DNA of 64,000 nucleotides from Candidatus Heimdallarchaeum aukensis (GTDB lineage: Archaea > Asgardarchaeota > Heimdallarchaeia > Heimdallarchaeales > Heimdallarchaeaceae). Position numbers and translations under genes: made by a program. How positions within the stretch are numbered: position 1 is the stretch's first letter; every line of letters begins with the position of its first letter. Of the stretch, positions 10,700-26,976 are shown piece by piece. The notes under the pieces were generated by a model. It was not told where the DNA came from. It did not search any database and saw only the letters and a list, made by a program, of their open reading frames with translations. The DNA lies in assembly GCA_021513695.1 (NCBI GenBank), contig CP084166.1, forward strand, positions 2,944,001 to 3,008,000. Direction: 5' to 3'.

Positions 10700-10877
10700 G
10701 ATATAGAAGTAATAGATGTATCTCTTGAAAGATGAAAGTATAGTTATTTATAAATTTAATTTAGCTAAAATAAAATATACTATTGTAGATTATTGAAATT
10801 TAATTCAGTCTAATCATCAAAAAATAAAGAATATCGTTTATTTCAATTCCACTATGTCTGATTCTAACGTAATTATC

Positions 10878-11192
10878 TTATTGTGTTTTTAAGAGTTTTA
10901 CCAGAGGTTGAATCAACTTGTCAATTCTATCAAAGGCTTCTTTTATATCTTGTTCATATGCCCAAACGTGTATGTCTCCTAACAGCAGTTCTAAATTTCT
11001 ATCTTTTTCTGTTTTCATTAAGGCAAAACCTAACCAATGTCTAACTAATGCTAAAAACCCATCAATTGAACAATTACCTTTTAAAACTTCATTATATTGT
11101 TTTATTATCAATTGTGCTGCTGCAGTAAGAGTTAGTTCTTCTTTGATTTCCTTTGTGTTAGATTTCATTAAGTATAGATTCCTTATAAACAA
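10878..11192 (-). CDS. Hypothetical 104-aa protein at the trailer end of the CRISPR array
   Basis: Clean ORF with coding-like composition. The antisense + strand ORF 10918-11196 is low-complexity. No recognisable family. Confidence 0.35.
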   Translation of the reverse strand: MFIRNLYLMKSNTKEIKEELTLTAAAQLIIKQYNEVLKGNCSIDGFLALVRHWLGFALMKTEKDRNLELLLGDIHVWAYEQDIKEAFDRIDKLIQPLVKLLKTQ

Positions 11193-11372
11193 ATAAAGGT
11201 TGTTTTTAGTAGTGTTAAAAATGCATTTAGGTGGTTTTTCAGCTCGTCCCTTTACTTTTTACGATGTTTCTAAACTTTTTAAATCTTCAGAAACGGAAAA
11301 AATTGTTAGAAAAAACGTTTCTTACATAATAAAGAAAGAATTTGAATATGTTATTACTAAACAGCTTAATAT

Positions 11373-13865
11373 ATTTCAATCCCACTATGGTCTGATTCTA
11401 ACAAGATTTAACTGATTTTGCTGCGTGTAATATTCCTAGATTTCAATCCCACTATGGTCTGATTCTAACGATTTTAACGAGGGTAACTCTGACGCTGAGC
11501 ATATAAATTTCAATCCCACTATGGTCTGATTCTAACTAAAATAAAATAAAATACAATAAAGGTGATTAATATAATTTCAATCCCACTATGGTCTGATTCT
11601 AACTATGTGGGTAACTTTATTAACTTTAGATGTTAAAAACATTTCAATCCCACTATGGTCTGATTCTAACGCAATCGAACAAACTGACACAAATATTAAC
11701 CTATACATTTCAATCCCACTATGGTCTGATTCTAACACATTTTTGAACCATTTAACAAGTCTAAATTGTTCTATTTCAATCCCACTATGGTCTGATTCTA
11801 ACATTAGTGTTTGGTTTTTTGCTCTATTATTGTCTTTAATTTCAATCCCACTATGGTCTGATTCTAACACAATGATCAAATTTATACCACAACAATTAAT
11901 GCGAAATTTCAATCCCACTATGGTCTGATTCTAACCTACTAATCATGAAGATATAATCTATTCATTTAGTTAATTTCAATCCCACTATGGTCTGATTCTA
12001 ACAAGATAAATGGTCTGAAATCAAAAAACATCATACTTATTTCAATCCCACTATGGTCTGATTCTAACTTAATCATATTCTTATTAATTATGCTTCTGCT
12101 AGTGCATTTCAATCCCACTATGGTCTGATTCTAACAGACTCTTCCCCATTTGTGTGTGAGCAACTAAACAAAATTTCAATCCCACTATGGTCTGATTCTA
12201 ACGATGATCTAAGAGAATTAAACGAATATATCAGCAGAATTTCAATCCCACTATGGTCTGATTCTAACTATGATCCTACGCTTGCTTTGTAATCCTGATG
12301 ATGAATTTCAATCCCACTATGGTCTGATTCTAACTAAGAAAAGAACGCATCAAGCGTTTTCTTGAAGAATAATTTCAATCCCACTATGGTCTGATTCTAA
12401 CTCATCATCAAAATGCCGACGGCTCGACTGAATTTTAATTTCAATCCCACTATGGTCTGATTCTAACTCATTCCTCAACTTGAGAGCGTCAGAATGAGAA
12501 AAAATTTCAATCCCACTATGGTCTGATTCTAACAGGTTATTAATCTGTGAAATAATATTGCTTTCAGTATATTTCAATCCCACTATGGTCTGATTCTAAC
12601 GCAATCGAACAAACTGACACAAATATTAACCTATACATTTCAATCCCACTATGGTCTGATTCTAACACATTTTTGAACCATTTAACAAGTCTAAATTGTT
12701 CTATTTCAATCCCACTATGGTCTGATTCTAACATTAGTGTTTGGTTTTTTGCTCTATTATTGTCTTTAATTTCAATCCCACTATGGTCTGATTCTAACAC
12801 AATGATCAAATTTATACCACAACAATTAATGCGAAATTTCAATCCCACTATGGTCTGATTCTAACGTGATTTTATTAATGATTTTGTTAATAAGCTTAAT
12901 TCATTTCAATCCCACTATGGTCTGATTCTAACTAACTTAACCATGATTGCTGAAGAAGGCGACCCATTAATTTCAATCCCACTATGGTCTGATTCTAACG
13001 GAATATTATTGTTACTGTTAGGTTTTTTGGCTACTTATTTCAATCCCACTATGGTCTGATTCTAACAAATACGAATATTTAGGTAAATGTATTGCTCGAG
13101 CTAATTTCAATCCCACTATGGTCTGATTCTAACAAATACGAATATTTAGGTAAATGTATTGCTCGAGCTAATTTCAATCCCACTATGGTCTGATTCTAAC
13201 TGATCTACACAGTTTATGCTTTGATTGATCGATATTGATTTCAATCCCACTATGGTCTGATTCTAACAGAATTAGCAAATTCAGAAAGAGAGTTAGTTAC
13301 CTGATTTCAATCCCACTATGGTCTGATTCTAACATATGGTCAGAAGTAAACGCAAGATTAGAATTTATTGATTTCAATCCCACTATGGTCTGATTCTAAC
13401 AGCATTTGCCAAAGTAATTAATGCCGAATTCTTGCTTATTTCAATCCCACTATGGTCTGATTCTAACAAAGCAGTACAAATCAAATACAATAATAGATTG
13501 ATAATTTCAATCCCACTATGGTCTGATTCTAACCCAGGAGTTCCTCGCATTCAAAGCATGGAAAGAAAGATTTCAATCCCACTATGGTCTGATTCTAACG
13601 CTCTATTCCATCGCTGAGGCCTAAGCCTAATGCACATTTCAATCCCACTATGGTCTGATTCTAACATTATGGCCTACATAATTTAACAATTAGTATTGTT
13701 AGATTTCAATCCCACTATGGTCTGATTCTAACAATGTCGTAAATGCAGGAATGGAGATTTCTATATTGAATTTCAATCCCACTATGGTCTGATTCTAACC
13801 CATTTACTGAATTCTCTACACATTTAGATCAACTCATTTCAATCCCACTATGGTCTGATTCTAAC
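11373..13865 (-). CRISPR. CRISPR array of 38 identical 30-bp direct repeats and 37 spacers (36-37 bp). Transcription is inferred on the minus strand.
   Basis: The repeat ATTTCAATCCCACTATGGTCTGATTCTAAC occurs at 11373, 11440, 11507, 11574, 11641 and onward to 13836, with a period of 66-67 bp. Its reverse complement GTTAGAATCAGACCATAGTGGGATTGAAAT ends in ATTGAAAT, the usual 3' end giving the 8-nt crRNA 5' handle in type I-B/I-A/III systems. The array sits next to the cas2 3' end. Confidence 0.97.
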
Positions 13866-13964
13866 ACTTCATATTTCCTATATTTTTGATAATAATAAGG
13901 CTTTTCTTTTTATTTACATTCGTGTTCCTCCCATTTGGTGTTTACTTTATAAATATCTACATTC
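13866..13964 (-). promoter_or_regulatory. Putative CRISPR leader (AT-rich, between cas2 stop and the cas-proximal repeat)
   Basis: A 99-bp AT-rich non-coding stretch lies directly adjacent to the last repeat on the cas2 side. Its position matches the inferred minus-strand transcription of the array. Confidence 0.5.
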
Positions 13965-14228
13965 TTATAATATATTTGATTTATTTCCTTTTTGTATTCC
14001 TATTTCTTTTCTTTCTAAATATTTTTCATCTCTTAATGTATATACTAATATACTATCTTCACTTTTTTTTATCATTTTTTCAATATTTTTTATTATTGAG
14101 CGCAATTCTGCTTTTGTTATTTCTCCTTCAAAAACACTATTTTGTATCCATTCCAGATATGTTTTCAGAAACCTTCTTACTTTGTCTATTCTTTCTACTT
14201 TTATATCATATACTATAATAACATACAT
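13965..14228 (-). CDS. cas2: CRISPR-associated endoribonuclease Cas2
   Basis: 87 aa starting MYVIIVYDI...SVFEGEI, a typical Cas2, immediately downstream of cas1. Confidence 0.9.
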   Translation of the reverse strand: MYVIIVYDIKVERIDKVRRFLKTYLEWIQNSVFEGEITKAELRSIIKNIEKMIKKSEDSILVYTLRDEKYLERKEIGIQKGNKSNIL

Positions 14229-14231
14229 GCA

Positions 14232-15218
14232 TTACCACCACGATATAAGTGGTTTGTATTCTAATTCACCCAAAAAGTGTTTACAAAGCTTATATAATTC
14301 AAGCCTTATTAGCCTTTTGTAACTCACATTTCTTTTTAATTCTTTGTGTTTTATTCTTGTTTTTAATTTTTGGTCCCAAAGTTCAATGAATTTTCTTTTT
14401 CCTGTCTCTGATAGCAACAAGTTTCCTATTTTTCCTTCAAAATCTTTATCGTTGAGTATTTTCTTATTTACCAAAGTTAATATTACTCTATCTGATAATA
14501 TGGGTTTAAAAATCTCACTCACATCAAGAGCAAGAGAAAATCTTCTTTCAAAAGGTTCATGTAAATATGAAATTGTAGGATTCAGTTGTGTATTATATAT
14601 TTCTGAGAGTATTGTAGTGTATAGAAGCGAATTACCAAAACTAATTAAAGCGTTCATTCTATTTGTAGGAGGTCTTCTTTCTCTTTTCACAATCTTAAAT
14701 TCTTTAGGAACAATTTGATCAATAGCTAAGTAATATTTATTTCGAATACTGCCTTCCAATCCCATTATCTTCTTAATTTCTAATATTTCTTGAATTTTTT
14801 TTGTTTCTTCTTCTATTTTTGAAATTATGTCACCAATTATTGAATCTTTTCTTCTACTCTTTAGGATTTTAATTATGTTAAAAGCTGAACCTCGAACAAA
14901 TTTTTTAGCTAATTTCAATCTTTTTGGATAAGATAGATAGTGTGCTGCTTGTTTTATAATCATATCTCCGCTAAGCAGTGTTTCTCGGGGATATAATGTA
15001 CTTTTATACCAACCATAATGATCAAAAAAGTGCACTGGAATTCCTTTTTTTCCAAGAAATAATACCACTCCGCCTGATAGAGAAAGATTTCCATATGCGT
15101 AGATTGCATTTATTCTTTCAACAGGTAAAGCTCTTTTCACATCTTTACAATGGAAATACAATGTATTTTCTTTTCTGTATAAAATTCCATTTTTCACAAT
15201 ATAAAATTCTTTTTTCAT
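14232..15218 (-). CDS. cas1: CRISPR-associated integrase Cas1
   Basis: 328 aa. The conserved C-terminal Cas1 region is ...NRMNALISFGNSLLYTTILSEIYNTQLNPTISYLHEP. Confidence 0.9.
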   Translation of the reverse strand: MKKEFYIVKNGILYRKENTLYFHCKDVKRALPVERINAIYAYGNLSLSGGVVLFLGKKGIPVHFFDHYGWYKSTLYPRETLLSGDMIIKQAAHYLSYPKRLKLAKKFVRGSAFNIIKILKSRRKDSIIGDIISKIEEETKKIQEILEIKKIMGLEGSIRNKYYLAIDQIVPKEFKIVKRERRPPTNRMNALISFGNSLLYTTILSEIYNTQLNPTISYLHEPFERRFSLALDVSEIFKPILSDRVILTLVNKKILNDKDFEGKIGNLLLSETGKRKFIELWDQKLKTRIKHKELKRNVSYKRLIRLELYKLCKHFLGELEYKPLISWW

Positions 15219-15749
15219 CTAAACCACATAACAAAAGTCTTTATACGCACACTTTGTGCATTTTGATGTTTTGATTTTTTTTGGAAGCGGTTTTTCAATT
15301 ATTTTTTCAATTTTGTTCAAAATTAGAAGAAGTTCTTTTTTATTTTCTTCAGTTAAAGTGACATTTTTCTTTTTATTTTCCTTTGGGTAGCGAATTTCTC
15401 CTTCTGCTTTTACTCCGTATCGATCTAAAAAGTAAAGATAGTAAAGTAGCTGATAGTAGTCAGCTTCTTCGTTGATACTTGATTTTTTAACTTCATTTAA
15501 TATTAATTTGTTCTTTTTATGCAAAAAATCTACATTTATAGCATCTAAGATTGTAATGTTTTTTTTCTCTCTCCGATATGATTCTTCATGTATTTGCCTT
15601 CCAATCAAAACTTCTTCATTTTCATTTTCCAATTGAATATTCCTTGCATACAACCATAGTTTCCTTTTACAAATAAAATAATAAGATACCATTACTCCAG
15701 TTATTTGTTTTGAATGTCCAAATAAGTTATTCATCACGTTCACTTTCAA
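15219..15749 (-). CDS. cas4: CRISPR-associated RecB-like nuclease Cas4 (Fe-S)
   Basis: 176 aa with one N-terminal Cys and three C-terminal Cys (CTKCAYKDFC). It sits in the adaptation module between cas3 and cas1. Confidence 0.85.
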   Translation of the reverse strand: MKVNVMNNLFGHSKQITGVMVSYYFICKRKLWLYARNIQLENENEEVLIGRQIHEESYRREKKNITILDAINVDFLHKKNKLILNEVKKSSINEEADYYQLLYYLYFLDRYGVKAEGEIRYPKENKKKNVTLTEENKKELLLILNKIEKIIEKPLPKKIKTSKCTKCAYKDFCYVV

Positions 15750-18577
15750 ATTATAAAACTCTGATCAAAAACTTCATTTAGTTTCCTTATATCCAATCCC
15801 TCTTCATAAGAAAACTTGATTAAGTTTAGAAATTCTTTGTTTACTTTAATGTATCCTCCTAATTCCTCAAATTCTCCTGTTCTGACCTTTTCTTTTATTA
15901 AGTGAATTAAAAGACGACTCTTTGAATCTATTTGTACGTATCTATTTGAAAGAGAGACAGTAAACTTGTTTAAATATTTTTGCAATTTCTTTATTTCAAT
16001 ATATCTCTCATTTTTATTTTGATTATTACAAGTAATTTGTAAAAACTTTTTCCAGACTTTTTCTCCACAAATATTAGAATCTTCAACAATCTCATTTTTC
16101 TCTAAAAACTCTTTTTCACTTTCAGGTAGTAGACTCGGGTTAATTTTTAATGATATAGGTAAAAAAATGCTAATAGTGTCACTGTTAATTACTCTGATTT
16201 TTCCTAATTCTTTAAATCTTAAATAGTTCATTGGTTCAATTATTTGCGATATTGTTATTCCATACTCACTTTCTTCTTTCTTTTTATACTCAATGGTATA
16301 CCTGTAGAACTCAGCAAATCTTTTTTCCTTGATAAATTCTTCTAATTCTTCTTTTCTATTTTCTTGGACCTTAAATCTTGTATCTACACCGTATATCATT
16401 TCCGCAGAATCCATATTGTAGACATAGAGTATGCTCTCTTCTTTACTTCTCTTATTTTCTCGATTGATCCTTCCAGCTATTTGTTCGATTGAATCAAGTA
16501 TTGCATATTCTCTAAATCCGAAATCACAATCAATATCTACACCCGCTTCTACTGATTGAGTTGATACCAAAACAACATTCCTTTCATGTGTTTCCTGATT
16601 CATTAATTGAATGATCTCTTTTCGCCTATCTGGAAGAATAGTTGAATTCAATAGGAGTAATTCAAAATTTTTTTTATCTAGATTGTTTTTTAAGTGCTGA
16701 AAGATGTTTATGGAGTTTTGTATTGTATTAGTCACGCAAAGAATTTTTTTCTTCCTTCTTTTACAACAATTTTCATATATTTTCTCTATGAAAAAGTCTA
16801 AAGAAGCAATTTCTTTAATATAGAAATTCAGAGTGTTACGAAGGAATAACTTGCTTTGAAAATACATATCAGAATTTTTTAAAAGAACTGAACATTTGTT
16901 CTTTTGCTCATTATCAAGAAATAGAGATAAATCAGGAAGCGTTGCACTCATTAAAATAAAATACATATTATAATTCTCTGCTAGTTCTCCTATGAGATTA
17001 ATAAAGGCATTCCAAAGATTTACAGGGATTGATTGTACTTCATCCATGATAATAATACTGTTAACAAAATTGTGCAGTTTTATATTAGCTTTTCTGGAAT
17101 TTCTGAAGAAAGTTTCAATAAAGTTAACACTACTAATGATATTGATCTGATTGTTCAGAAACATCTGATTAAGAAGAATTTTAGTCTCTTCGAATTCTTC
17201 CATAGTAAAATCCCATTCTATAAGTGAATAAATCTCTGAAATTGAAATATGTTCATTTTCACTAGAGAGCGTTTCTTTAATGACTTTTGCATTTTGTTCT
17301 ATAATATTAATGAAAGGAAAAACATAGTTGATTCGTTGTAAATTTTTTGTGTGTTGGTTGTTCAGAATGTCTAATGCCAGTTTTATTGACGTATTTGTTT
17401 TTCCGCTCCCTGTTGGTGATCTAAAAAAGAAAATTCGTTTTGCTTTATTTAACTCCTTCTCTAGAATACTACTACATTCAATCAAAATTCTTGTTCGTAG
17501 CTCATTTATATCTTCGATAAAGTTAATGTTTTTCTTTAACAGTTTATCAACTAAAGTTTTATCTTTAATTTGTTGATTAAATATCTTGTTTTTAAAAAAG
17601 TTAGAAACCAAGTTTTTTTTACATTTTTCATCAATTAAATTGAATTCAAGTTCACTTATATCCCAGTTATTTACAAAAGAAGCTGTAGCATAGCTATCAG
17701 CTGAAATTAAGAGAGAAAATATAAGTTTATAAAAATGAAATAGAGTATTTCCATCTTGTAATTTCTCCAAAGTAAATTTTCTTATCTTCGAATTATTGCA
17801 ATATCTTCTGAAAAGACTTAAGTTATCATCTGATATTTCAATTAATGTGCATTTTTTAATAAAGTTTATGTTCCTCTCTTCTAGTAGTTTTTTTTCTCTC
17901 TCCTCTAAATACTCTTCTATATTCTTTAATCTAGAATGATGTCTATTTACACTACTATTTAGAACTAGACTTAAGAAAAACAATTGAAAAGTTAAAAGAA
18001 GAATCTTTTTTTCTTTTTTTTCTCCCTTTTTTTGCTGAATCCCTTTCATAATGTTAAAGATCTCTTGTATGTTAAAATAATCTAAAAATATCTGCCCAAA
18101 CTCACTGTGATTTTTTGAATTACCAAAGAAATTTTCTACCGTTTCCTTTATTTTTTGATCTAATTGTTGAAATGAAAGATTTAATTTTAACACTTTTCTT
18201 TGATAGTTTGGATTTATTTTTCCAAAGTCGTGAAAATAGATTATTCTTGCAATATTTGTTTTTATGAAATCTCCAAATTTGTTTAAAGAAAGAATATCTT
18301 GATCTATATTTAATGCATTATAAATTTTTGTTATCATGTTATTGAAAATATCTTTTAATTTATACTCCTTAATAATTCTTTCAAAAATTTTTAAAGTAAG
18401 TTCAGAGTGTTGAGATAAACTTTCTACTTCGCCTGTTGGAGACATGTGGGCTTTTATTGAACTTTCAACTAATTTAGAAAACTCTTCTACAAGGAATTTA
18501 TCATAACTATATTCACCTAAAATATTAGAACAGGAAAATTGTTTCTCCATTTTCATCACTAACAAGAATATATTCAT
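15746..18577 (-). CDS. cas3: Cas3 HD nuclease-helicase fusion
   Basis: N-terminal HD region (HSELT...FHDFGK). SF2 helicase motifs follow: FFRSPTGSGKT (Walker A) and IIMDEVQS (DExx box). The true start is probably an internal Met near 18550-18556, because the annotated start overlaps cas5 by 53 nt. Confidence 0.88.
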   Translation of the reverse strand: MNIFLLVMKMEKQFSCSNILGEYSYDKFLVEEFSKLVESSIKAHMSPTGEVESLSQHSELTLKIFERIIKEYKLKDIFNNMITKIYNALNIDQDILSLNKFGDFIKTNIARIIYFHDFGKINPNYQRKVLKLNLSFQQLDQKIKETVENFFGNSKNHSEFGQIFLDYFNIQEIFNIMKGIQQKKGEKKEKKILLLTFQLFFLSLVLNSSVNRHHSRLKNIEEYLEEREKKLLEERNINFIKKCTLIEISDDNLSLFRRYCNNSKIRKFTLEKLQDGNTLFHFYKLIFSLLISADSYATASFVNNWDISELEFNLIDEKCKKNLVSNFFKNKIFNQQIKDKTLVDKLLKKNINFIEDINELRTRILIECSSILEKELNKAKRIFFFRSPTGSGKTNTSIKLALDILNNQHTKNLQRINYVFPFINIIEQNAKVIKETLSSENEHISISEIYSLIEWDFTMEEFEETKILLNQMFLNNQINIISSVNFIETFFRNSRKANIKLHNFVNSIIIMDEVQSIPVNLWNAFINLIGELAENYNMYFILMSATLPDLSLFLDNEQKNKCSVLLKNSDMYFQSKLFLRNTLNFYIKEIASLDFFIEKIYENCCKRRKKKILCVTNTIQNSINIFQHLKNNLDKKNFELLLLNSTILPDRRKEIIQLMNQETHERNVVLVSTQSVEAGVDIDCDFGFREYAILDSIEQIAGRINRENKRSKEESILYVYNMDSAEMIYGVDTRFKVQENRKEELEEFIKEKRFAEFYRYTIEYKKKEESEYGITISQIIEPMNYLRFKELGKIRVINSDTISIFLPISLKINPSLLPESEKEFLEKNEIVEDSNICGEKVWKKFLQITCNNQNKNERYIEIKKLQKYLNKFTVSLSNRYVQIDSKSRLLIHLIKEKVRTGEFEELGGYIKVNKEFLNLIKFSYEEGLDIRKLNEVFDQSFII

Positions 18578-19319
18578 GAGTTATTGTTTCTTTCACCAAA
18601 AATTCAGAATTTGAAAAAACAACAGTTTTAAAAACATATTGATTTTCTCTGAAACCAATTGGATAATTTTGATAAAAGAAAAAGTCTATATCTGCATTTA
18701 CAATAAGATCTGTTTCATCTTTTGCTACAATATCATTAAAAACAATTGTTTTAAACCTTGTTTCTGTTTCACTAGTGATTTCTTTGTATTCATATTCTCC
18801 TTCATAAATAATACTTAATGGAAATTCGTTTTTCCCCATATAAGGCATGAAATGAGCTCGATTTTCTTGTAAATTTTTCTTTAGTTGAGCAAAAATGTTA
18901 TCTTGAGCAGTTCCTTTTTCTAAATAAATTCGATAAGCAGGCTTAATGAGAATTTGTTCATTTACAATTAAATTTCCTCCCGTTTCATAGCTTCCATAGC
19001 CATGAAAGTTAATAAATTGAATGAACTCTTTTCTTAAAGGCGAATAACTATTTTCAAAATCAGAGTCTTTATATGGTGCTTTAGAGCCTTTTTTAAGCTT
19101 TAAAGGTGTTATTCCAATTCTAATGCCAGAAAGTTTATCAATAAATTCAGGATTTTGCTTTTTTTCTCGATAACCTTCAAGACCTATCAGTGCTCCAAGA
19201 ATTCCAAGTACTGATGGTTTTGGAATAATATCATAGGTCAACTTTGTTTCAGTAATGTCAGGTTTACTAAAAGTTCCAAAGTCAGAAAAAATAATGAAGG
19301 ATAAAAGATTTCTCTTCAT
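18525..19319 (-). CDS. cas5: Cas5 (type I-B)
   Basis: Glycine-rich N-terminal segment PSVLGILGALIGLEG, characteristic of Cas5. Located between cas7 and cas3. Confidence 0.8.
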   Translation of the reverse strand: MKRNLLSFIIFSDFGTFSKPDITETKLTYDIIPKPSVLGILGALIGLEGYREKKQNPEFIDKLSGIRIGITPLKLKKGSKAPYKDSDFENSYSPLRKEFIQFINFHGYGSYETGGNLIVNEQILIKPAYRIYLEKGTAQDNIFAQLKKNLQENRAHFMPYMGKNEFPLSIIYEGEYEYKEITSETETRFKTIVFNDIVAKDETDLIVNADIDFFFYQNYPIGFRENQYVFKTVVFSNSEFLVKETITHEYILVSDENGETIFLF

Positions 19320-19327
19320 ATCCTCAC

Positions 19328-20350
19328 CTAACTACTTAAAATGCTCCCGGTTAAGAGATTTTTTATCTCAAAGGTAATTTTCTCGTTTGTACTACTTTTT
19401 TCGATTTCAGTTTTAGCAGGGTCGATATAAACTTCAACTGTTATAGGATTATTCGGTGATAACACTTCTTTATTTTGGTTGATATAGTCCAATAATCTGT
19501 TTATCTTTATTCTAATTTTTCCTTTTTCTTCTGTATTTTCAAAATCTACAAAGTGTTTAAGGTTTTGAAGACAAATTGGATTATCATATTCAATATAGAT
19601 GAAACACTCTGTTTCAGAACCTATTTTTGTTGTTGAATTAACATTATGGACTCCTAATCTTGCTGCTTCCTTGAATATATCTATATCTGAATTAGATAAA
19701 AGGTATTGTTCTTTTTTTTCTAGTTTTTGAAGAACAAAATCTGACATTAAAGCATTTGGATTAATGATGTAATCAAATACATAGTGTATCTCTAATGCTT
19801 TTGTTTCTTCACCTATAGTTGTGTGCTTTGCTTCCTGTCCTTCTTTATCATCTCTATATGGAGATAATATCTGATTTATGTAATGGATATTCTCTTTTGT
19901 TGCGTTGATCCCATAGGAAATTTGTATTGGTCCTGTTATCGATAAACTTGAAAGATTTTTGCTTTTTGGAGCAAAAGTTACTCCAAACATTCTTACATCA
20001 ATGCAAGAAAGCAAATTTCTTAGGATTTGTCTGTCATCTTCTTTTTTATTTTTGTCATCAGAACTAAATAATGCATAGTAATTTTCCTCTAAGGTCATTG
20101 GACTTAGGTTGTCATTCCTTCTTCTCCAAGCGAAAATCTTAGAATCAGTTTTATTGTCTAGGATATATTTTCTGATGCAGTATTTCAGCGATTTATCTGT
20201 AGCATATATAGTCCCTTTCTCATCAGGAAGTCTTCTTGGCGTTCCTGAAAAGTCAGCATTGAAATTACTGTTTACTGACTTTACAATGATTAAGCCACTT
20301 ACGTGCTTTTCAAAAAGGTTATTTTCTGTATTGTTTTGATTTTCTTTCAA
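19328..20350 (-). CDS. cas7: Cas7 (Csh2/Cst2-type, type I-B)
   Basis: LIIVKSVNSNFNADFSGTPRRLPDEKGTIYATD is the RAMP Cas7 N-terminal signature. Located between cas8b and cas5. Confidence 0.85.
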   Translation of the reverse strand: MKENQNNTENNLFEKHVSGLIIVKSVNSNFNADFSGTPRRLPDEKGTIYATDKSLKYCIRKYILDNKTDSKIFAWRRRNDNLSPMTLEENYYALFSSDDKNKKEDDRQILRNLLSCIDVRMFGVTFAPKSKNLSSLSITGPIQISYGINATKENIHYINQILSPYRDDKEGQEAKHTTIGEETKALEIHYVFDYIINPNALMSDFVLQKLEKKEQYLLSNSDIDIFKEAARLGVHNVNSTTKIGSETECFIYIEYDNPICLQNLKHFVDFENTEEKGKIRIKINRLLDYINQNKEVLSPNNPITVEVYIDPAKTEIEKSSTNEKITFEIKNLLTGSILSS

Positions 20351-20352
20351 TT

Positions 20353-22425
20353 TTAATCCTCCTTTTTCATGAAAAATATATTTTCATCAAAAAATCCAAC
20401 GTAGAAACTCATTTTAATCTCATTAAAGGGTTGTGAAAAGTTATTTGCCAAATAATTCAGTGTCTCAGCAAAAACGATGTGTCTAAAGTCCTTGTATTCA
20501 GAGATTTCATGAAGATATTTTTCTAGATATTTTTCTAACAAAATTCTCTTTAAGTTTATAGGCGATTGTACAGACACTAAAGGTGTTAGTAGTTTCATTT
20601 TTTTATCTGCGTTGGATTTGCTGATTAAGTAGTAAACCATTTGTCCTAAATAATAGGCAAATTTTTCAGGGGAATCGATCTTAAAAGATTCTCCGTTAAT
20701 TATTTTCTTTTTTTCTTCTCTTATTTTGTCTAACATGATCTCACCATTTTTATTTTTTTTAATAAAATTATCATTTACTTTACTAAAAAGATCAGCGTTA
20801 AGATAAAAGTTTAAAATTTCATGTATCTGACTTTTTGTTGAAGTATTTTTTCCAGTTTCACTGTGCATTATAAATTTATTTTCTAATAATTTAGTTGTAA
20901 TTTCAGCAATATCGTTATCTGTTAAACATATCTCGCTTCTATAAATTGTATCAAAGAATTTTTTTCTATACTTGTAGATAAGATATTTTTGTTCTGTTAT
21001 ACCACTTTTTTTCTTTGTGTCTAAATCCCCAAAGAACTTGATCTTAAGATCAAAAATTTTTTTTAACTTTTTCAACAAATCTTCTTTTCCAAATTTCTTA
21101 CTAGATTGTGTTCCAAGATATTCTTTATATTCGGAATTTCCGTTGAAGTACAGACGATAGTTAGATATGTAATCAAAAAAAATGATCGATTTTTTATTTA
21201 TTATATTTACTAATATGATATCAAATGAATTTAGGTTGCTTCTTTTTTGAATTTCCTTTATTGTCAAAAAAAAGAATTTTCTTTTATTTTTATTATCCTT
21301 TTCTAATGATTTTAATGACTTAATAAAGTCTATTTGTTCTTTAACTAAGCTTTCTTTGATAAAAAGTGGAAAAATGTTTATCTTATTTTCTTTAAGAAAA
21401 TAGAGAAAGTTATTAAAATATTCTGCGCATGAAATACAAATTTTTATTGTATGTTTAAGATGCCTGTCAAATTTAATAGAAAAAGGCTTTTTTTCATTAA
21501 ATGATGTATAATTTGAAATATTTCCCATTTCTCCTTTTCTTCCACAAACAGGGCAAGTAGACTCAATAATTGTGTCTCTGGTAACAAACAACTTAAGAAT
21601 AATGTATTGTTCAAAAAGCTCTTCTATAACTTGATAGTTTTTATAGTTTAAGAAAACATATGCTTTGTCACATAATCTCAATAGTATATTTAGTTTTTTT
21701 AGTAAACTATACTCTTGTTCTGATACTTGATTTCTTATATTATCTATGTACTTTTTGCTTTTAATATTCTTATATTCTCCTTCTTGTAAATTAGTTCCAC
21801 CTAAAATATCCTTATTATTTTGGTCTAATAAACCAAATATGTTAAGTAATTCTCGATAAAAATGTTCATAAGTGAGCATAATCTTTGTCTTTTCTTTGTT
21901 TTTGTTTGAAGTAATTATCTCATTGATAAATTCCTTTGTTTTGTTATTTTTGACTGTATTTAAAATTAATTTCAAGTATTCGTTTTTTAAGTTAAGTTTT
22001 GAGATTCTTTCGAGAGGTTTATTTTTTCCCTTTTCATAAAGCGGATTTCTGAATAAACTTCCTAGTTTAAAATGAAATAATGAAAAAGTGTTTAATCCGC
22101 TTGTACTTCCTATGTACTTATTAGAATCTGATATTGTGGAAGTATATTTTTTAAAATCTAGTACTTTTATTAGTTCTTTTTCTTTTCTTAAAAGACTAAA
22201 AGGTTCTTTATTTGGAAAATCTTGAACAAGCTCATCATTTAGATCGGTTATTATTCTAAATCCTTTATATGAATTTTCTAGATTCCAATCTACTTCAATG
22301 AGAAAAATAACAGGAAATTGTTCTTTAATAGAATCAATATCATAATCTTCACTTACTACTAACTGTTGAGTGTTTTTTTCCATCTTTTCAAGTTCTTTCA
22401 TAAATTTAATTGATTCGATTATCAT
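20353..22425 (-). CDS. cas8b: Cas8b (Csh1-like large subunit, type I-B)
   Basis: 690 aa large protein between cas6 and cas7, with an internal zinc-finger-like CPVCGRKGEMGN...CISCAEYF. This is the position and size expected for the I-B large subunit. Confidence 0.75.
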   Translation of the reverse strand: MIIESIKFMKELEKMEKNTQQLVVSEDYDIDSIKEQFPVIFLIEVDWNLENSYKGFRIITDLNDELVQDFPNKEPFSLLRKEKELIKVLDFKKYTSTISDSNKYIGSTSGLNTFSLFHFKLGSLFRNPLYEKGKNKPLERISKLNLKNEYLKLILNTVKNNKTKEFINEIITSNKNKEKTKIMLTYEHFYRELLNIFGLLDQNNKDILGGTNLQEGEYKNIKSKKYIDNIRNQVSEQEYSLLKKLNILLRLCDKAYVFLNYKNYQVIEELFEQYIILKLFVTRDTIIESTCPVCGRKGEMGNISNYTSFNEKKPFSIKFDRHLKHTIKICISCAEYFNNFLYFLKENKINIFPLFIKESLVKEQIDFIKSLKSLEKDNKNKRKFFFLTIKEIQKRSNLNSFDIILVNIINKKSIIFFDYISNYRLYFNGNSEYKEYLGTQSSKKFGKEDLLKKLKKIFDLKIKFFGDLDTKKKSGITEQKYLIYKYRKKFFDTIYRSEICLTDNDIAEITTKLLENKFIMHSETGKNTSTKSQIHEILNFYLNADLFSKVNDNFIKKNKNGEIMLDKIREEKKKIINGESFKIDSPEKFAYYLGQMVYYLISKSNADKKMKLLTPLVSVQSPINLKRILLEKYLEKYLHEISEYKDFRHIVFAETLNYLANNFSQPFNEIKMSFYVGFFDENIFFMKKED

Positions 22426-23141
22426 TCAATCACCTCAATACAACCAAATCCCAACCCTGTTTTCTCTCCAAGGCCTGTATTGTATGCAAATTTTAACAAT
22501 TCTCTACTCGCTTGGACATCAAATGTCATCAAAGTACATCTTCTGTAGCTATTTTTTATTAAAACTCTTTTTAGTTTTAAATTGCGAATACTCGTTATTT
22601 CAAAGAAGTCTTGCTTCGGTTTTCTTCCAAAATATCTATAATATCTTTCTAACAGGTTTTTATGTAAATTTTCACTAAATTTAAGATCCCTTGGTGTAAG
22701 GTCATAAGGTTTTAGCTTTCCTTCTTTGTTGCGTCTCAAAGTCTTAACATATATTGGAGAAAGTGTTTTTAAAGTACAATCTGATTTAATATTTTTTTTA
22801 TTTTCAATTTTAATTCTCTTTACTACAAACTGCTGGGTCCCTAAATGGAATTTTAAATCTTTAAAAACGCCTGTTGCTAATCCGTCTAAAAATTCGTTAT
22901 CGATGGATGTAAAGTAAAAGAATGCTTCTTTAAAATATAATCCTTTTTTTGAAAATTTTTTCTCTTCTATTATTAAATTTGAAAAATTGTAATATTTGAA
23001 CTTTGTTTTTCTGTGTAATCTTTGTGAGACTTCTTTCTTTGAATCACTGATTTTTCTTAATATTGCACTAGTTAACCAATGTTGATAATTAAAATTTAAT
23101 GGACCATCAGTGATCTTTTCAACAAAGATTTTTAATCTCAT
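22422..23141 (-). CDS. cas6: Cas6 crRNA endoribonuclease
   Basis: 239 aa with the C-terminal glycine-rich loop GLGEKTGLGFGCIEV typical of Cas6. It is the first gene of the cas operon. Confidence 0.85.
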   Translation of the reverse strand: MRLKIFVEKITDGPLNFNYQHWLTSAILRKISDSKKEVSQRLHRKTKFKYYNFSNLIIEEKKFSKKGLYFKEAFFYFTSIDNEFLDGLATGVFKDLKFHLGTQQFVVKRIKIENKKNIKSDCTLKTLSPIYVKTLRRNKEGKLKPYDLTPRDLKFSENLHKNLLERYYRYFGRKPKQDFFEITSIRNLKLKRVLIKNSYRRCTLMTFDVQASRELLKFAYNTGLGEKTGLGFGCIEVIE

Positions 23142-23306: not shown

Positions 23307-23945
23307 GTGAAGACAATTATAACTCCCTCTGGATTTGAGCCAAAGCCAATTATTTCTTTTATTGTTAAAGAAGGAATTAGTAAAGAAGATAGAATAATCA
23401 TCATAAGACCAAAAGAAGATAAGATGCCTAAAGATGCAAAAGATGCTCTCTCAGAAATTAAAAAATTTATTAGTTTAATATCAGAAGATATTGAAATAGA
23501 TCTTAAATTCGTTGACATTTCTGATTTCGATATTCTTCTAATTGATTTACTTGAAATATTCAAAAATATAAATGGAGAAGTTATTGTAAATACTTATGGA
23601 AGTGTTAGAGAAATTACAATTGGCTTAACAATAATTAATCTTCTTTTTAAAAGAAATATATCAAAAGTTTATCATTATTCGAGAATGGATGAAGAATGCT
23701 TCTTACTAAATCTACCTGCAATTGTCTTCCCATTGGAGGGTATGGAAAAAAAAATACTTTTATTACTGGAAAACTCTGCTATTAATGATTATAACAGTTT
23801 GGCTAAAACTTTAAAAGTTTCAAAAAGTACAATCTCACGCGTAGTCCATATTTTAAATGACAAGAAGCTGGTTTCTGTTACAGAAACAGGGAAGAAAAAA
23901 ATAATAAAATTGTCTGTATCAGGACGATTATTAGCAAATTTATGA
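23307..23945 (+). CDS. csa3: Csa3-like CRISPR-associated transcriptional regulator (CARF + winged HTH)
   Basis: N-terminal Rossmann-like CARF region (IITPSGFEPKPIISFIVKEG...IIIIRP) and a C-terminal HTH (LAKTLKVSKSTISRVVHILNDKKLV). Divergent from cas6. Confidence 0.6.
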   Translation: MKTIITPSGFEPKPIISFIVKEGISKEDRIIIIRPKEDKMPKDAKDALSEIKKFISLISEDIEIDLKFVDISDFDILLIDLLEIFKNINGEVIVNTYGSVREITIGLTIINLLFKRNISKVYHYSRMDEECFLLNLPAIVFPLEGMEKKILLLLENSAINDYNSLAKTLKVSKSTISRVVHILNDKKLVSVTETGKKKIIKLSVSGRLLANL

Positions 23946-23978
23946 AAAAATTTCTTTTCTTAATATTTCACTTTTTAT

Positions 23979-24003
23979 AATCAGACCATAGCGGGATTGA
24001 AAT
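23979..24003 (+). repeat. Solitary degenerate CRISPR repeat (25 of 30 nt, 1 mismatch), in opposite orientation to the main array
   Basis: The + strand reads aatcagaccatagCgggattgaaat. The reverse complement of the array repeat is gttagaatcagaccatagTgggattgaaat. No second repeat follows. Confidence 0.8.
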
Positions 24004-24324: not shown

Positions 24325-25305
24325 ATGACAGTCATACTTCAAACTAGAAATTTGTATAAGACATATGATAAAAAGGTTAAAGCCGTACAAGGAATAGATT
24401 TAGAAATAAAAAATGGAGAAGTTTTTGGATTACTTGGTCCAAATGGCGCAGGAAAAACGACTTTAATAAAGATGCTCGTTGGAATCTTGAAACCTGACAA
24501 AGGAGAAATTTTGTTCAATGGCATTAAATTAAACGGTACGACTGAACTAAAAGGACTGATAGGTTATGCTCCACAAGAATTAGTTTTCTATCCTTTCTTA
24601 ACTGTCTTAGAAAACATGCAACTTTTTGCTAGTCTTTACTCGATTAAAAATGCAAGAAAACGTATAGATGAAATTTTAGAACTTTTTCAACTTACAGAGT
24701 TGTCAAAAAGACAAGCTGAAAAGATGTCAGGAGGTCAGAAGCGTCGATTAAATATTGCTTTAAGTTTACTTCACTCACCACAGATTCTCTTTTTAGATGA
24801 ACCTTCTTCAGGTATGGATCCGCAGAGTAGAAATGTGTTATGGGAAAGTGTAGAACAATTAAAAGAGAAAGAAGGGGTAACCATCCTTTTATCAACTCAT
24901 TTAATGGAAGTAGCTGATAAACTGAGCGATAGAGTTGCGATAATTGATCATGGAAAGGTTCTAACAGTTGGAACACCTGATGAGTTAAAATCAAAACATG
25001 CATCTATTGAGACAGTGGAAATTCAATTTGCAAAAAATATTTCTCCTTTAATACAAGAAAAAATAACTCTTCAGTTGAAAGATAAGTATGAACAGCTTTC
25101 GACAGCAAATGACAGGTTCTTTATTAAAACAAAAAACGGTTTGAAAGCAATATCTGATATTATGAAAACTATTGAAAGTCTAGCAGTTCTTTCCTACTTA
25201 CAAGATATACAACTTCGTCTTGGAACGTTAGAAGATGTATTTTTGAATCTAACAGGAAAAGAACTTAGAGAAAATAATTTTAGTTTTGGAGGTGATAGGA
25301 GATGA
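24325..25305 (+). CDS. ABC transporter ATP-binding protein (ABC-2 exporter family)
   Basis: Walker A GLLGPNGAGKTT, ABC signature LSGGQKRRL, Walker B ILFLDEPSSGMD. ATGA overlap with the permease gene. Confidence 0.9.
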   Translation: MTVILQTRNLYKTYDKKVKAVQGIDLEIKNGEVFGLLGPNGAGKTTLIKMLVGILKPDKGEILFNGIKLNGTTELKGLIGYAPQELVFYPFLTVLENMQLFASLYSIKNARKRIDEILELFQLTELSKRQAEKMSGGQKRRLNIALSLLHSPQILFLDEPSSGMDPQSRNVLWESVEQLKEKEGVTILLSTHLMEVADKLSDRVAIIDHGKVLTVGTPDELKSKHASIETVEIQFAKNISPLIQEKITLQLKDKYEQLSTANDRFFIKTKNGLKAISDIMKTIESLAVLSYLQDIQLRLGTLEDVFLNLTGKELRENNFSFGGDRR

Positions 25306-26603
25306 ATTTGAGAAATAACAAGTTTGTTCAACTATTAAGTGTAAACCTTAAAGCAATTTATAGACAAAGAATGGTTCTTTTCTTTACGCTTCTCTTTCCC
25401 TTGATATTTATTGGTGTTTTCGGTATATCCTATGGTGGAGATGGGGCAACAACTCGTACTATGGATCTTATAGTAATTAACAATGATTTAGGTATTCCTG
25501 AAAACACTGTAGCTTTTTATGGAAATGAAACTGTTTCAGGGACATTTTACTCTGAAAAGTATTTAGAATTACTAGGCAATCTTGTTTACCCGGATTCAAA
25601 AGACAATAAATCTGTTTTTTTTATTACTGTCATCAATGAAACAGAAAGAGACAATGCACTGTTCAAACTTGAACGAAGAGAAATCGTTGCTCTTCTTACT
25701 TTACCTGAAGATTTTAGTTTAGGTATACTCTTTAGTTTTAGAACACAATTTAGCAACGATAGCTTCTTTTCTTTATTGACTAACAATTGGTCTGGTTACC
25801 CAGAAAGCTCACTTTCGGTAGAAATTACTATACTAGGAGACTCAAGTACAGAAGAGTTTGCTATTGCAGGGCCTATTATAAATGAATTCAGTAAAATGTT
25901 TTTTCAGCTAGGAAATGAACAACAAACTGGAGTGAATGTTAACATAATCGGAAACTACCAAACTAAAGGTTTCAGCACATTTTACTATATTGTTCCTGGT
26001 GTTATAATTTTCGGTGTGTTGCAATCCCTCACTTCTGGAGCAAGCAGAACTATGCGCGATGTAGACTCAAAGAATTTGGAAAGAATTCGTTTAACTCGTG
26101 TAGCTTCTTATACTTATGTAAGCGCGCTTATTGTTAGTCAAGCCTTGTTAGTTGCTATTCAAGTACCAATAATGTTTGTAACAGCAATGCTTTTTGGATT
26201 AGAACTATCGATACATGTATTAAGCGGAATAATTGTAGGAATTATTCTTTCTTTCGCCACTACAGGAATAGCCTTTTTGCTTGCTGGACTTGTACGTAAA
26301 GGTGACGAAGCAGAAGGGTTAGCTAATCTTATAGCTGTTCCAATGGCTTTTCTCTCTGGATCTTTTACCGTTATGCCAAACCCTGAAATTCTTCCTAATG
26401 TTGGCTGGTTAGGAGGAAACTCTTTGCGATTGTTTGATTTCTTGCCTTCTACCCCTGCTGTAAGAATATTACGTTCTTTAATTCTTGGACAAAGAACTTT
26501 AGGTGAGAATTGGTTTGATCTATGTCTATTAACTCTGCTAGCCTTTCTCTACCTTGGACTGGGGTTGGGTGTATATATTCAAAAACACTTGAGAATGAAA
26601 TAG
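25302..26603 (+). CDS. ABC-2 type transporter permease with a large extracellular loop
   Basis: 433 aa: one N-terminal TM helix, a ~170-aa loop, then 5-6 C-terminal TM helices. Translationally coupled to the ATPase. Confidence 0.8.
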   Translation: MNLRNNKFVQLLSVNLKAIYRQRMVLFFTLLFPLIFIGVFGISYGGDGATTRTMDLIVINNDLGIPENTVAFYGNETVSGTFYSEKYLELLGNLVYPDSKDNKSVFFITVINETERDNALFKLERREIVALLTLPEDFSLGILFSFRTQFSNDSFFSLLTNNWSGYPESSLSVEITILGDSSTEEFAIAGPIINEFSKMFFQLGNEQQTGVNVNIIGNYQTKGFSTFYYIVPGVIIFGVLQSLTSGASRTMRDVDSKNLERIRLTRVASYTYVSALIVSQALLVAIQVPIMFVTAMLFGLELSIHVLSGIIVGIILSFATTGIAFLLAGLVRKGDEAEGLANLIAVPMAFLSGSFTVMPNPEILPNVGWLGGNSLRLFDFLPSTPAVRILRSLILGQRTLGENWFDLCLLTLLAFLYLGLGLGVYIQKHLRMK

Positions 26604-26628: not shown

Positions 26629-26976
26629 TTATCCTTCTTTTTTTTCTTCTAGTATGGTTGTTAATGCTGTGGTCATTAGATTTGCATACTCTTGGATAGA
26701 GTTTACCCCTTTCTCTGTTAAATATAAAATAGTTGTAGGTTTGGCTTTAATGAACGCTTTTTGAACTTCAATTAATCCATTCTCTTCTAGTTTCTTAATG
26801 TGAGAAGAAAGATTACCTGCAGTTAAGTCTAAAACCTTTTGAACTTCAGTGAAAAGAGCTTTTCCTTTAGGTAAAAGAAATATCATAATCGCTAGTCTAA
26901 CAGGTGTGTGAATAATATCATTAACACTAGCGACTTCTTTGAGAACATTCTCCTCCTCAGAACTCTCTTCACGCAT
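26629..26976 (-). CDS. ArsR/PadR-like winged-helix transcriptional regulator
   Basis: 115 aa. HTPVRLAIMIFLLPKGKALFTEVQKVLDLTAGNLSSHIKKLEENGLIEV fits a wHTH recognition helix plus wing. Confidence 0.55.
   Translation of the reverse strand: MREESSEEENVLKEVASVNDIIHTPVRLAIMIFLLPKGKALFTEVQKVLDLTAGNLSSHIKKLEENGLIEVQKAFIKAKPTTILYLTEKGVNSIQEYANLMTTALTTILEEKKEG

Follow-up and report, generated by a model that had tools for sequence, protein, structure and literature searches.

A four-spacer block present twice, ten spacers apart, in a type I-B CRISPR array of an Asgard archaeon

The CRISPR array located at positions 11373–13865 of the window (the whole 64-kb stretch of DNA that was analysed) contains a block of four spacers that occurs twice, identical in sequence and order, with ten unrelated spacers between the two copies. 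The duplication is probably real and would have arisen when identical 30-nt repeats at different positions of the array recombined with each other. It represents one more instance of a known phenomenon, the duplication of spacer blocks, in this case in an Asgard archaeon, and it is unusual solely in being dispersed. The identity of the two copies, the polarity of the array, its subtype, the existence of diverged sister arrays and the occurrence of other duplicates in the same repeat family are direct observations described below; the correctness of the assembly and the route taken by recombination are what we infer from them.

Anatomy of the array and of the repeated block

The array covers 2,493 bp and was parsed into 38 identical 30-nt repeats and 37 spacers of either 36 nt (n = 16) or 37 nt (n = 21), 32 of which are distinct. 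Identical repeats at regular intervals together with a near-constant spacer length identify it as a CRISPR array, and its spacing is even throughout, with no N and no truncated unit. The repeat is essentially unstructured, as its fold is no better than that of shuffled sequences, and a search of Rfam matched it to no CRISPR-DR family. The array reads in minus-strand orientation, so that transcription would start from the leader at the 13866 end, where new spacers enter. This polarity is established by comparison with two sister arrays on related contigs of the same population (L001 and L008, see the next section), because both share just trailer-end spacers with the window; a variable leader end and a conserved trailer end are the mark of polarised growth. 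The leader (13866–13964) is identical in L001 and similar in Candidatus Heimdallarchaeum endolithica PR6. Spacers are numbered here from the leader unless otherwise indicated, and the coordinates of the array, the adjoining operon and their flanks are collected in Table 1.

The set of signature genes beside the array assigns the system to subtype I-B. NCBIfam matches were obtained for Cas1b (3e-134), Cas5b (2e-30), Cas7/Csh2, Cas6, Cas3 (HD and helicase), Cas4 and Cas2, and Cas8b is divergent, being recognized by PADLOC (1e-16) with no match in NCBIfam or Pfam. The gene order cas6-cas8b-cas7-cas5-cas3-cas4-cas1-cas2 is presumably the same as in the type I-B systems of euryarchaea, e.g., Haloferax volcanii. 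The 3' end of the array repeat (...GTGGGATTGAAAT) is likewise close to what we take to be the end of the type I-B repeat of H. volcanii (...GTGGGATTGAAGC). In Haloferax, cleavage by Cas6b at the end of the repeat leaves an 8-nt 5' handle.

Table 1. Coordinates of the array, the repeated spacers, the cas operon and flanking features in the window
Feature	Positions	Strand	Remarks
CRISPR array	11373–13865	-	Repeat in the transcribed sense GTTAGAATCAGACCATAGTGGGATTGAAAT; no other array in the 64-kb window
Leader	13866–13964	-	99 bp, from the end of cas2 to the start of the array; holds a TTTATAAA box
Trailer-proximal block copy	11641–11935	-	Spacers 30–33 from the leader (11671–11706, 11737–11772, 11803–11838, 11869–11905)
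Ten unique spacers and nine repeats between the copies	11936–12570	-	Spacers 20–29 from the leader; make the duplication dispersed, not tandem
Leader-proximal block copy	12571–12865	-	Spacers 16–19 from the leader (12601–12636, 12667–12702, 12733–12768, 12799–12835)
Adjacent single-spacer duplicate	13037–13200	-	Spacer 11 = spacer 12 from the leader (13134–13170 = 13067–13103)
Type I-B cas operon	13965–23141	-	Complete; adjoins the array
cas2	13965–14228	-	NCBIfam
cas1	14232–15218	-	NCBIfam
cas4	15219–15749	-	NCBIfam
cas3	15746–18577	-	NCBIfam
cas5	18525–19319	-	NCBIfam
cas7	19328–20350	-	NCBIfam
cas8b	20353–22425	-	PADLOC
cas6	22422–23141	-	NCBIfam
csa3-like CRISPR-associated regulator gene	23307–23945	+	Pfam Csa3_N, 2.9e-11
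Lone repeat copy	23974–24003	+	3 mismatches; opposite orientation to the array, just past csa3; also in L001 and PR6
Degenerate repeat	10840–10868	-	One substitution and one deletion; positional homologue of the terminal repeat of the PR6 array

An exact repeat comparison showed that 11641–11935 and 12571–12865 are identical over 295 nt with zero mismatches. The repeated unit comprises four spacers together with their five bounding repeats, and the copies are offset by 930 bp, which corresponds to 14 repeat-spacer units. Both edges of the identity fall inside repeats and the spacers are the same and in the same order, as expected of duplication by repeat-mediated recombination or slippage. The sequence-only reading had equated spacers 5–8 (11671–11905) with spacers 19–22 (12601–12835) on the plus strand, which is exact to the base in both sequence and order, and had rightly stated that exactly four units were copied about 930 bp apart, the neighbouring spacers differing on both sides. 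Its numbering was counted from the trailer (oldest) end, so that the same spacers are 30–33 and 16–19 in the leader count. It had also pointed to "identical proteins" encoded at 11586–11918 and 12564–12848; the two translations are identical over their first 92 residues and diverge afterwards, and both correspond to spurious reading frames on the minus strand across the array.

In an all-against-all comparison of the spacers no similar pair was detected within the window array besides the duplicated ones, which excludes chance as the source of the block identity. Redundant copies account for 5 of the 37 window spacers. The tandem layout expected from one slippage or unequal crossover is not that of the block, in which ten unrelated spacers intervene; the only tandem duplicate in the array is the single spacer at 13067–13170, where the identity extends over 97 nt (13037–13133 = 13104–13200). 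This adjacent pair was absent from the sequence-only reading.

Sister arrays, flanking rearrangements and targets

The only related contigs were obtained by exact-protein look-ups with Cas2, Cas1 and a 96-aa ORF located on the trailer side of the array, and the two that bear an array (L001/L004/L006 and L008) represent a lineage that split off after the second-oldest spacer. The JGI contig L001/L004 is identical to the window at 11,068 of 11,071 bases of the cas operon (99.97%) and at 748 of 748 bases of the trailer flank; the L001 array consists of 72 repeats and has in common with the window only the two spacers farthest from cas2. The same two spacers are all that L008, which derives from a sister sample, shares with the window. 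These samples therefore contain sister arrays that have diverged although their flanks are nearly identical. Both L001 and L008 are short-read contigs, with Ns and with spacers and repeats that are cut short. The runs SRR15988954 and SRR15988958 yielded Logan contigs that are 100% identical to the flanks of the window array, and the ones that reach the array end at its first or last repeat. At a greater distance, Ca. H. endolithica PR6 (CP084167.1) has the same repeat, a Cas1 that is 94% identical and a cas operon that is about 85.5% identical; spacer 14 of the window (12933–12969) equals PR6 spacer 2 save for the first base.

Duplicates are common in the repeat family shared by the window, L001, L008 and PR6. 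One adjacent identical pair is reproduced in two separate assemblies (L001, spacers 38 = 39; L008, spacers 25 = 26), and an adjacent pair also occurs in PR6 (spacers 7 = 8), whose genome is a Canu assembly of nanopore reads. L001 and L008 each have, in addition, a dispersed duplicate of a single spacer (L001, spacers 6 = 16; L008, spacers 3 = 21).

Contig pattern, homology and exact-ORF searches, the negatives of which are weak, found no other sequence with the block or with any spacer younger than the two oldest. The exact pattern of block spacer 18/32 gave 0 matches in metagenome_contigs and genome_contigs; since the control, the oldest spacer carried by L001 and L008, also gave 0 in metagenome_contigs, the metagenome negatives carry little weight. 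When array ORFs were used as homology probes only array ORFs of other arrays were retrieved, at 39–56% identity. Three array ORFs had no exact match in protein look-ups, and neither a 104-aa version of the trailer ORF nor the IOR alpha protein is on record in such look-ups. Among the arrays compared (L001, L008, PR6) neither an un-duplicated ancestral array nor parent arrays were seen.

The degenerate repeat at 10840–10868 has a flank homologous to that of the terminal repeat of PR6. It is separated by 504 bp from the last perfect repeat (11373–11402), and this interval holds the 96-aa ORF (10878–11168), for which no family match was found in NCBIfam, Pfam or PADLOC. In PR6 the ortholog of this ORF is situated on the opposite side of the operon, past csa3. 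A 9-nt remnant of the end of the repeat lies ahead of it there, and it converges on a paralog of 41% identity that starts 41 nt after a lone inverted repeat. The window has the lone inverted repeat (23974–24003), but an ABC-transporter island replaces the position of the PR6 paralog. The placement of the 96-aa ORF and the presence of the island in place of the paralog therefore indicate that larger rearrangements at repeats have also taken place in the locus.

The same island is the target of spacers from the sister species. PR6 spacer 17 matches the window at 26169–26204 (36/36) and PR6 spacer 18 matches it at 26782–26816 (33/35), within a protospacer inferred to span 26780–26816. Both protospacers sit in the island adjoining the window cas operon and each is preceded by CCA, which suggests 5'-CCA as a putative PAM on the basis of two protospacers only; this and the divergent Cas8b are the points in which the window differs from euryarchaeal type I-B systems. 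The paired matches reproduce the pattern described for HeimM1, which in Ca. H. aukensis adjoins the C2 operon and is targeted by a pair of C1 spacers of PR6 (Wu et al., 2022; PMC8813620), and the window is accordingly assigned to Ca. H. aukensis or a strain very close to it. The C1 and C2 loci reported there for Ca. H. endolithica and Ca. H. aukensis have the same repeat, gene order and neighbourhood as the locus in the window. Duplicated spacers are not mentioned in the main text of that paper, where the string "duplicat" has one unrelated use.

A match to the published spacer-length table was considered, in which an array of 36- and 37-nt spacers only has proportions of 0.4167:0.5833 (15:21 if it contains 36 spacers) compared with 16:21 in the window. 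It was not relied on, because the table and the text are labelled inconsistently (the PR6 array is C1 in the text, whereas its profile of 18 spacers fits the one listed as C4).

For the four block spacers 0 protospacers were found in IMG/VR and the array repeat occurred in 0 of its contigs, in agreement with Wu et al. (2022; PMC8813620), who reported that viral databases gave no matches to the spacers. The supplementary files of that paper (including the mobilome FASTA) were searched on both strands for 20-mers taken from the block spacers, from the tandem spacer and from spacer 14, with 0 matches, although line breaks in the files could conceal some.

Origin of the duplication

According to the explanation favoured here, four repeat-spacer units would have been copied by recombination between repeats, leaving the block at its present distances of 15 and 29 spacers from the leader. 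The sequence-only reading had argued that the block did not arise by acquisition at the leader end, and this is borne out by the breakpoints, which lie inside repeats, and by the unchanged order of the four identical spacers. Its proposal of "unequal recombination inside the array" holds as regards mediation by the repeats; a single event of this kind gives only a tandem duplication or a deletion, whereas the copies observed are ten spacers apart. Given these ten unrelated spacers, one unequal crossover or replication slip in a single array is insufficient, and either process was rejected as the sole cause.

Three routes could account for the dispersed arrangement and are considered about equally likely, the last of them slightly less so. 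One is a single crossover between two sister arrays, or an integration by one-sided homology anchored on the trailer side. Both arrays would have shared spacers 30–37, after which one would have gained spacers 20–29 and the other spacers 1–15; the observed order would then result if the repeat that follows the block in one array became joined to the one that precedes spacer 20 in the other. The diverged sister arrays that co-exist in these samples would provide the substrate for such an event. Another is a single ectopic gene conversion or template-switch event, involving two switches, that would have pasted the four units into another repeat. The remaining route consists of a tandem duplication of 14 units followed by a deletion of 10 units, and it would need two long events compared with a reported mean deletion of 2.7 units (PMC11472070). 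The more specific proposal that the dispersed block marks the join of two arrays from co-existing Heimdallarchaeum strains, which would have diverged from a common stock of the block and the older spacers, is put forward tentatively and is considered unlikely.

The main alternative to a real duplication, already named in the sequence-only reading, is an assembly artefact, in which the assembler or scaffolder would have threaded at least two array variants into one path, either passing twice through a block that each genome has only once or following a loop found in a minority variant alone. It is regarded as a serious if somewhat unlikely possibility, as a 150-nt read does not span the 295-nt identity. 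The identity also exceeds k = 99, and a de Bruijn graph consequently collapses the block into a repeat node. A k = 99 graph of the array shows one simple loop, with a block node that has two predecessors and two successors, and resolves the 97-nt adjacent duplicate. The published genome of Ca. H. aukensis was produced with metaSPAdes (k 21–99) from 150-nt pairs, nanopore scaffolding and polishing with pilon; if the window is part of that genome, metaSPAdes and scaffolding could have mis-traversed the loop in a mixed population. Variants of the array do co-exist in the samples, L001 and L008 differing from the window and from each other, and short-read contigs of this array family carry evident errors (Ns, truncated spacers and repeats). 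The order of the units rests on one assembly: the searches, with their weak negatives, found no independent sequence of the block region, and the Logan contigs from the 100%-matching runs give no independent unit order, since they end at the first or last repeat. Such a loop, however, needs all four junctions of the block as k-mers, and if these came from reads, arrays with a single block must place it on opposite sides of spacers 20–29; the occurrence of the block on opposite sides of these spacers in different strains would itself be a rearrangement. Moreover, the window array displays none of the local signs of mis-assembly seen in L001 and L008, having no N, partial unit or irregular spacing, and duplicates recur in the sister arrays as well as in an assembly of long reads. 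Recombination between repeats in the cell thus remains the preferred explanation.

Two further explanations retain the duplication as real and assign it a different cause. Independent re-acquisition would require that the same four protospacers were captured again in the same order at a later encounter, for instance by primed adaptation from hot spots. Single dispersed duplicates may have been re-acquired (L001 spacers 6 = 16, L008 spacers 3 = 21), and the near-identity of window spacer 14 and PR6 spacer 2, which differ in the first base, indicates that one protospacer was sampled in two species. To obtain four spacers with the same ends, lengths and order in this manner is very unlikely, though; repeated series of spacers are treated in the literature as duplications on grounds of order (PMC8047081), and SpacerPlacer attributes only about 1% of duplicate candidates to re-acquisition (PMC11472070). 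On the basis of order and exact boundaries this explanation was rejected as extremely improbable. Shuttling by a mobile element, in which a virus or plasmid mini-array with the host repeat would have taken up the block and returned it elsewhere in the array, is in turn given very little probability. The locus has other repeat-bounded rearrangements (the 96-aa gene lies between its last two repeats) and adjoins a mobile island targeted by the sister species. Against this, the array repeat is in no IMG/VR contig, neither a protospacer nor a carrier was found for the block spacers, and simpler chromosomal routes suffice without a mobile element.

Relation to known duplications and significance

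Repeated blocks of spacers are a recognized outcome of repeat-mediated rearrangement (PMC8047081) and have been reported in Streptococcus thermophilus, S. agalactiae and Sulfolobus, among others (see PMC8047081 for a review, and PMC11472070 and PMC4524480 for frequencies). About 3% of the spacers in CRISPRCasdb arrays are duplication candidates (PMC11472070), and spacers duplicated within an array amount to 1–11% in several species (PMC4524480). The known cases resemble the present one in that an identical series of spacers occurs twice, with its edges in repeats and a conserved trailer, and they have been ascribed to misalignment or recombination of repeats and not to adaptation. They differ in that the copies described here are dispersed by 10 units, the host is an Asgard archaeon and no related array polarises the event. 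A likeness is also found with the "order divergence events" of Kupczok et al. (2015; PMC4524480), which result from recombination between homologous arrays of different strains and in which a shared segment is followed by differing segments; in the window, likewise, the block leads leaderward to spacers 20–29 once and to spacers 1–15 once, as would be seen after the joining of two diverged arrays. The difference is that both "arrays" lie in one molecule and that neither presumed parent was seen. Recombination of this kind has been reported to be rare (PMC11472070).

The duplication adds little to CRISPR biology in general, as repeats of spacer blocks have been known since the first comparisons of arrays. 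In practical terms, chronologies or strain typing that make use of this array should be read from the 13866 end, with spacers 16–19 and 30–33, as well as 11 and 12, regarded as non-chronological. An expected consequence of the second copy is that the four corresponding crRNAs would be present at about double dose, and the 295-nt direct repeats would promote deletion of the 14 intervening units, which predicts the existence of deletion variants that lack them. Should the block be the seam of two parental arrays, recombination between strains in an uncultured Asgard lineage could be followed cheaply with it as a marker; it would then constitute a footprint of homologous DNA exchange between cells in a natural Asgard population, by which two immune histories were pooled.

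Single-spacer duplicates and sister arrays

The window array carries a second duplication at 13037-13200, where the neighboring 37-nt spacers 13067-13103 and 13134-13170 are identical; adjacent duplicates of single spacers are also found in the sister arrays of two contigs from the same population (L001 and L008, Table) and in the sister species Ca. Heimdallarchaeum endolithica PR6. The cas operon of the window is 99.97% identical to that of the same-population contigs, and the only spacers that the L001 and L008 arrays have in common with the window array are the two oldest. The L001 and L008 arrays differ from each other by internal blocks of seven units, and these contigs contain Ns as well as truncated spacers and repeats.

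Positions of the features described
Feature	Sequence	Positions	Remarks
L001 array	L001	10364-15179	72 repeats
L008 array	L008	18-4351	65 repeats
Degenerate repeat	window	10840-10868	counterpart of the PR6 terminal repeat
96-aa ORF	window	10878-11168	minus strand; no family match
Lone repeat copy	window	23974-24003	opposite orientation to array; 3 mismatches; just past csa3
Protospacer 1	window	26169-26204	36/36 match to one of the two oldest PR6 spacers
Protospacer 2	window	26780-26816	33/35 match to the other

Trailer end and lone repeat

The 38 repeats of the window array (11373-13865) are all identical, down to the trailer-end copy. The degenerate terminal repeat usual in arrays sits 504 bp off in the window, displaced by an inserted segment with the 96-aa ORF, which lies between this repeat and the last perfect one (region 10840-11402). 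The ortholog of this ORF in PR6 (region 421-1218 of the PR6 sequence, L010) lies across the cas operon from the array; a 9-nt remnant of the repeat precedes it, and a paralog (41% identical) that follows a lone repeat adjoins it. The gene orders of the window and PR6 are circular permutations of each other. The lone repeat beyond csa3 keeps the same place in L001 and PR6.

Spacer matches between the window and PR6

Window spacer 14 (leader count, 12933-12969) equals PR6 spacer 2 (L010 11454-11490) except for the first base (T vs. C), hence the same protospacer was sampled by two species whose arrays are otherwise unrelated. Both window protospacers matched by PR6 spacers are located within an island of ABC-transporter genes, which covers 24325-26603 and continues further and is absent from the corresponding site in PR6. 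Each protospacer is preceded by CCA (n = 2), suggesting 5'-CCA as the PAM, and the island with its PR6-matched protospacers fits the published HeimM1 element.
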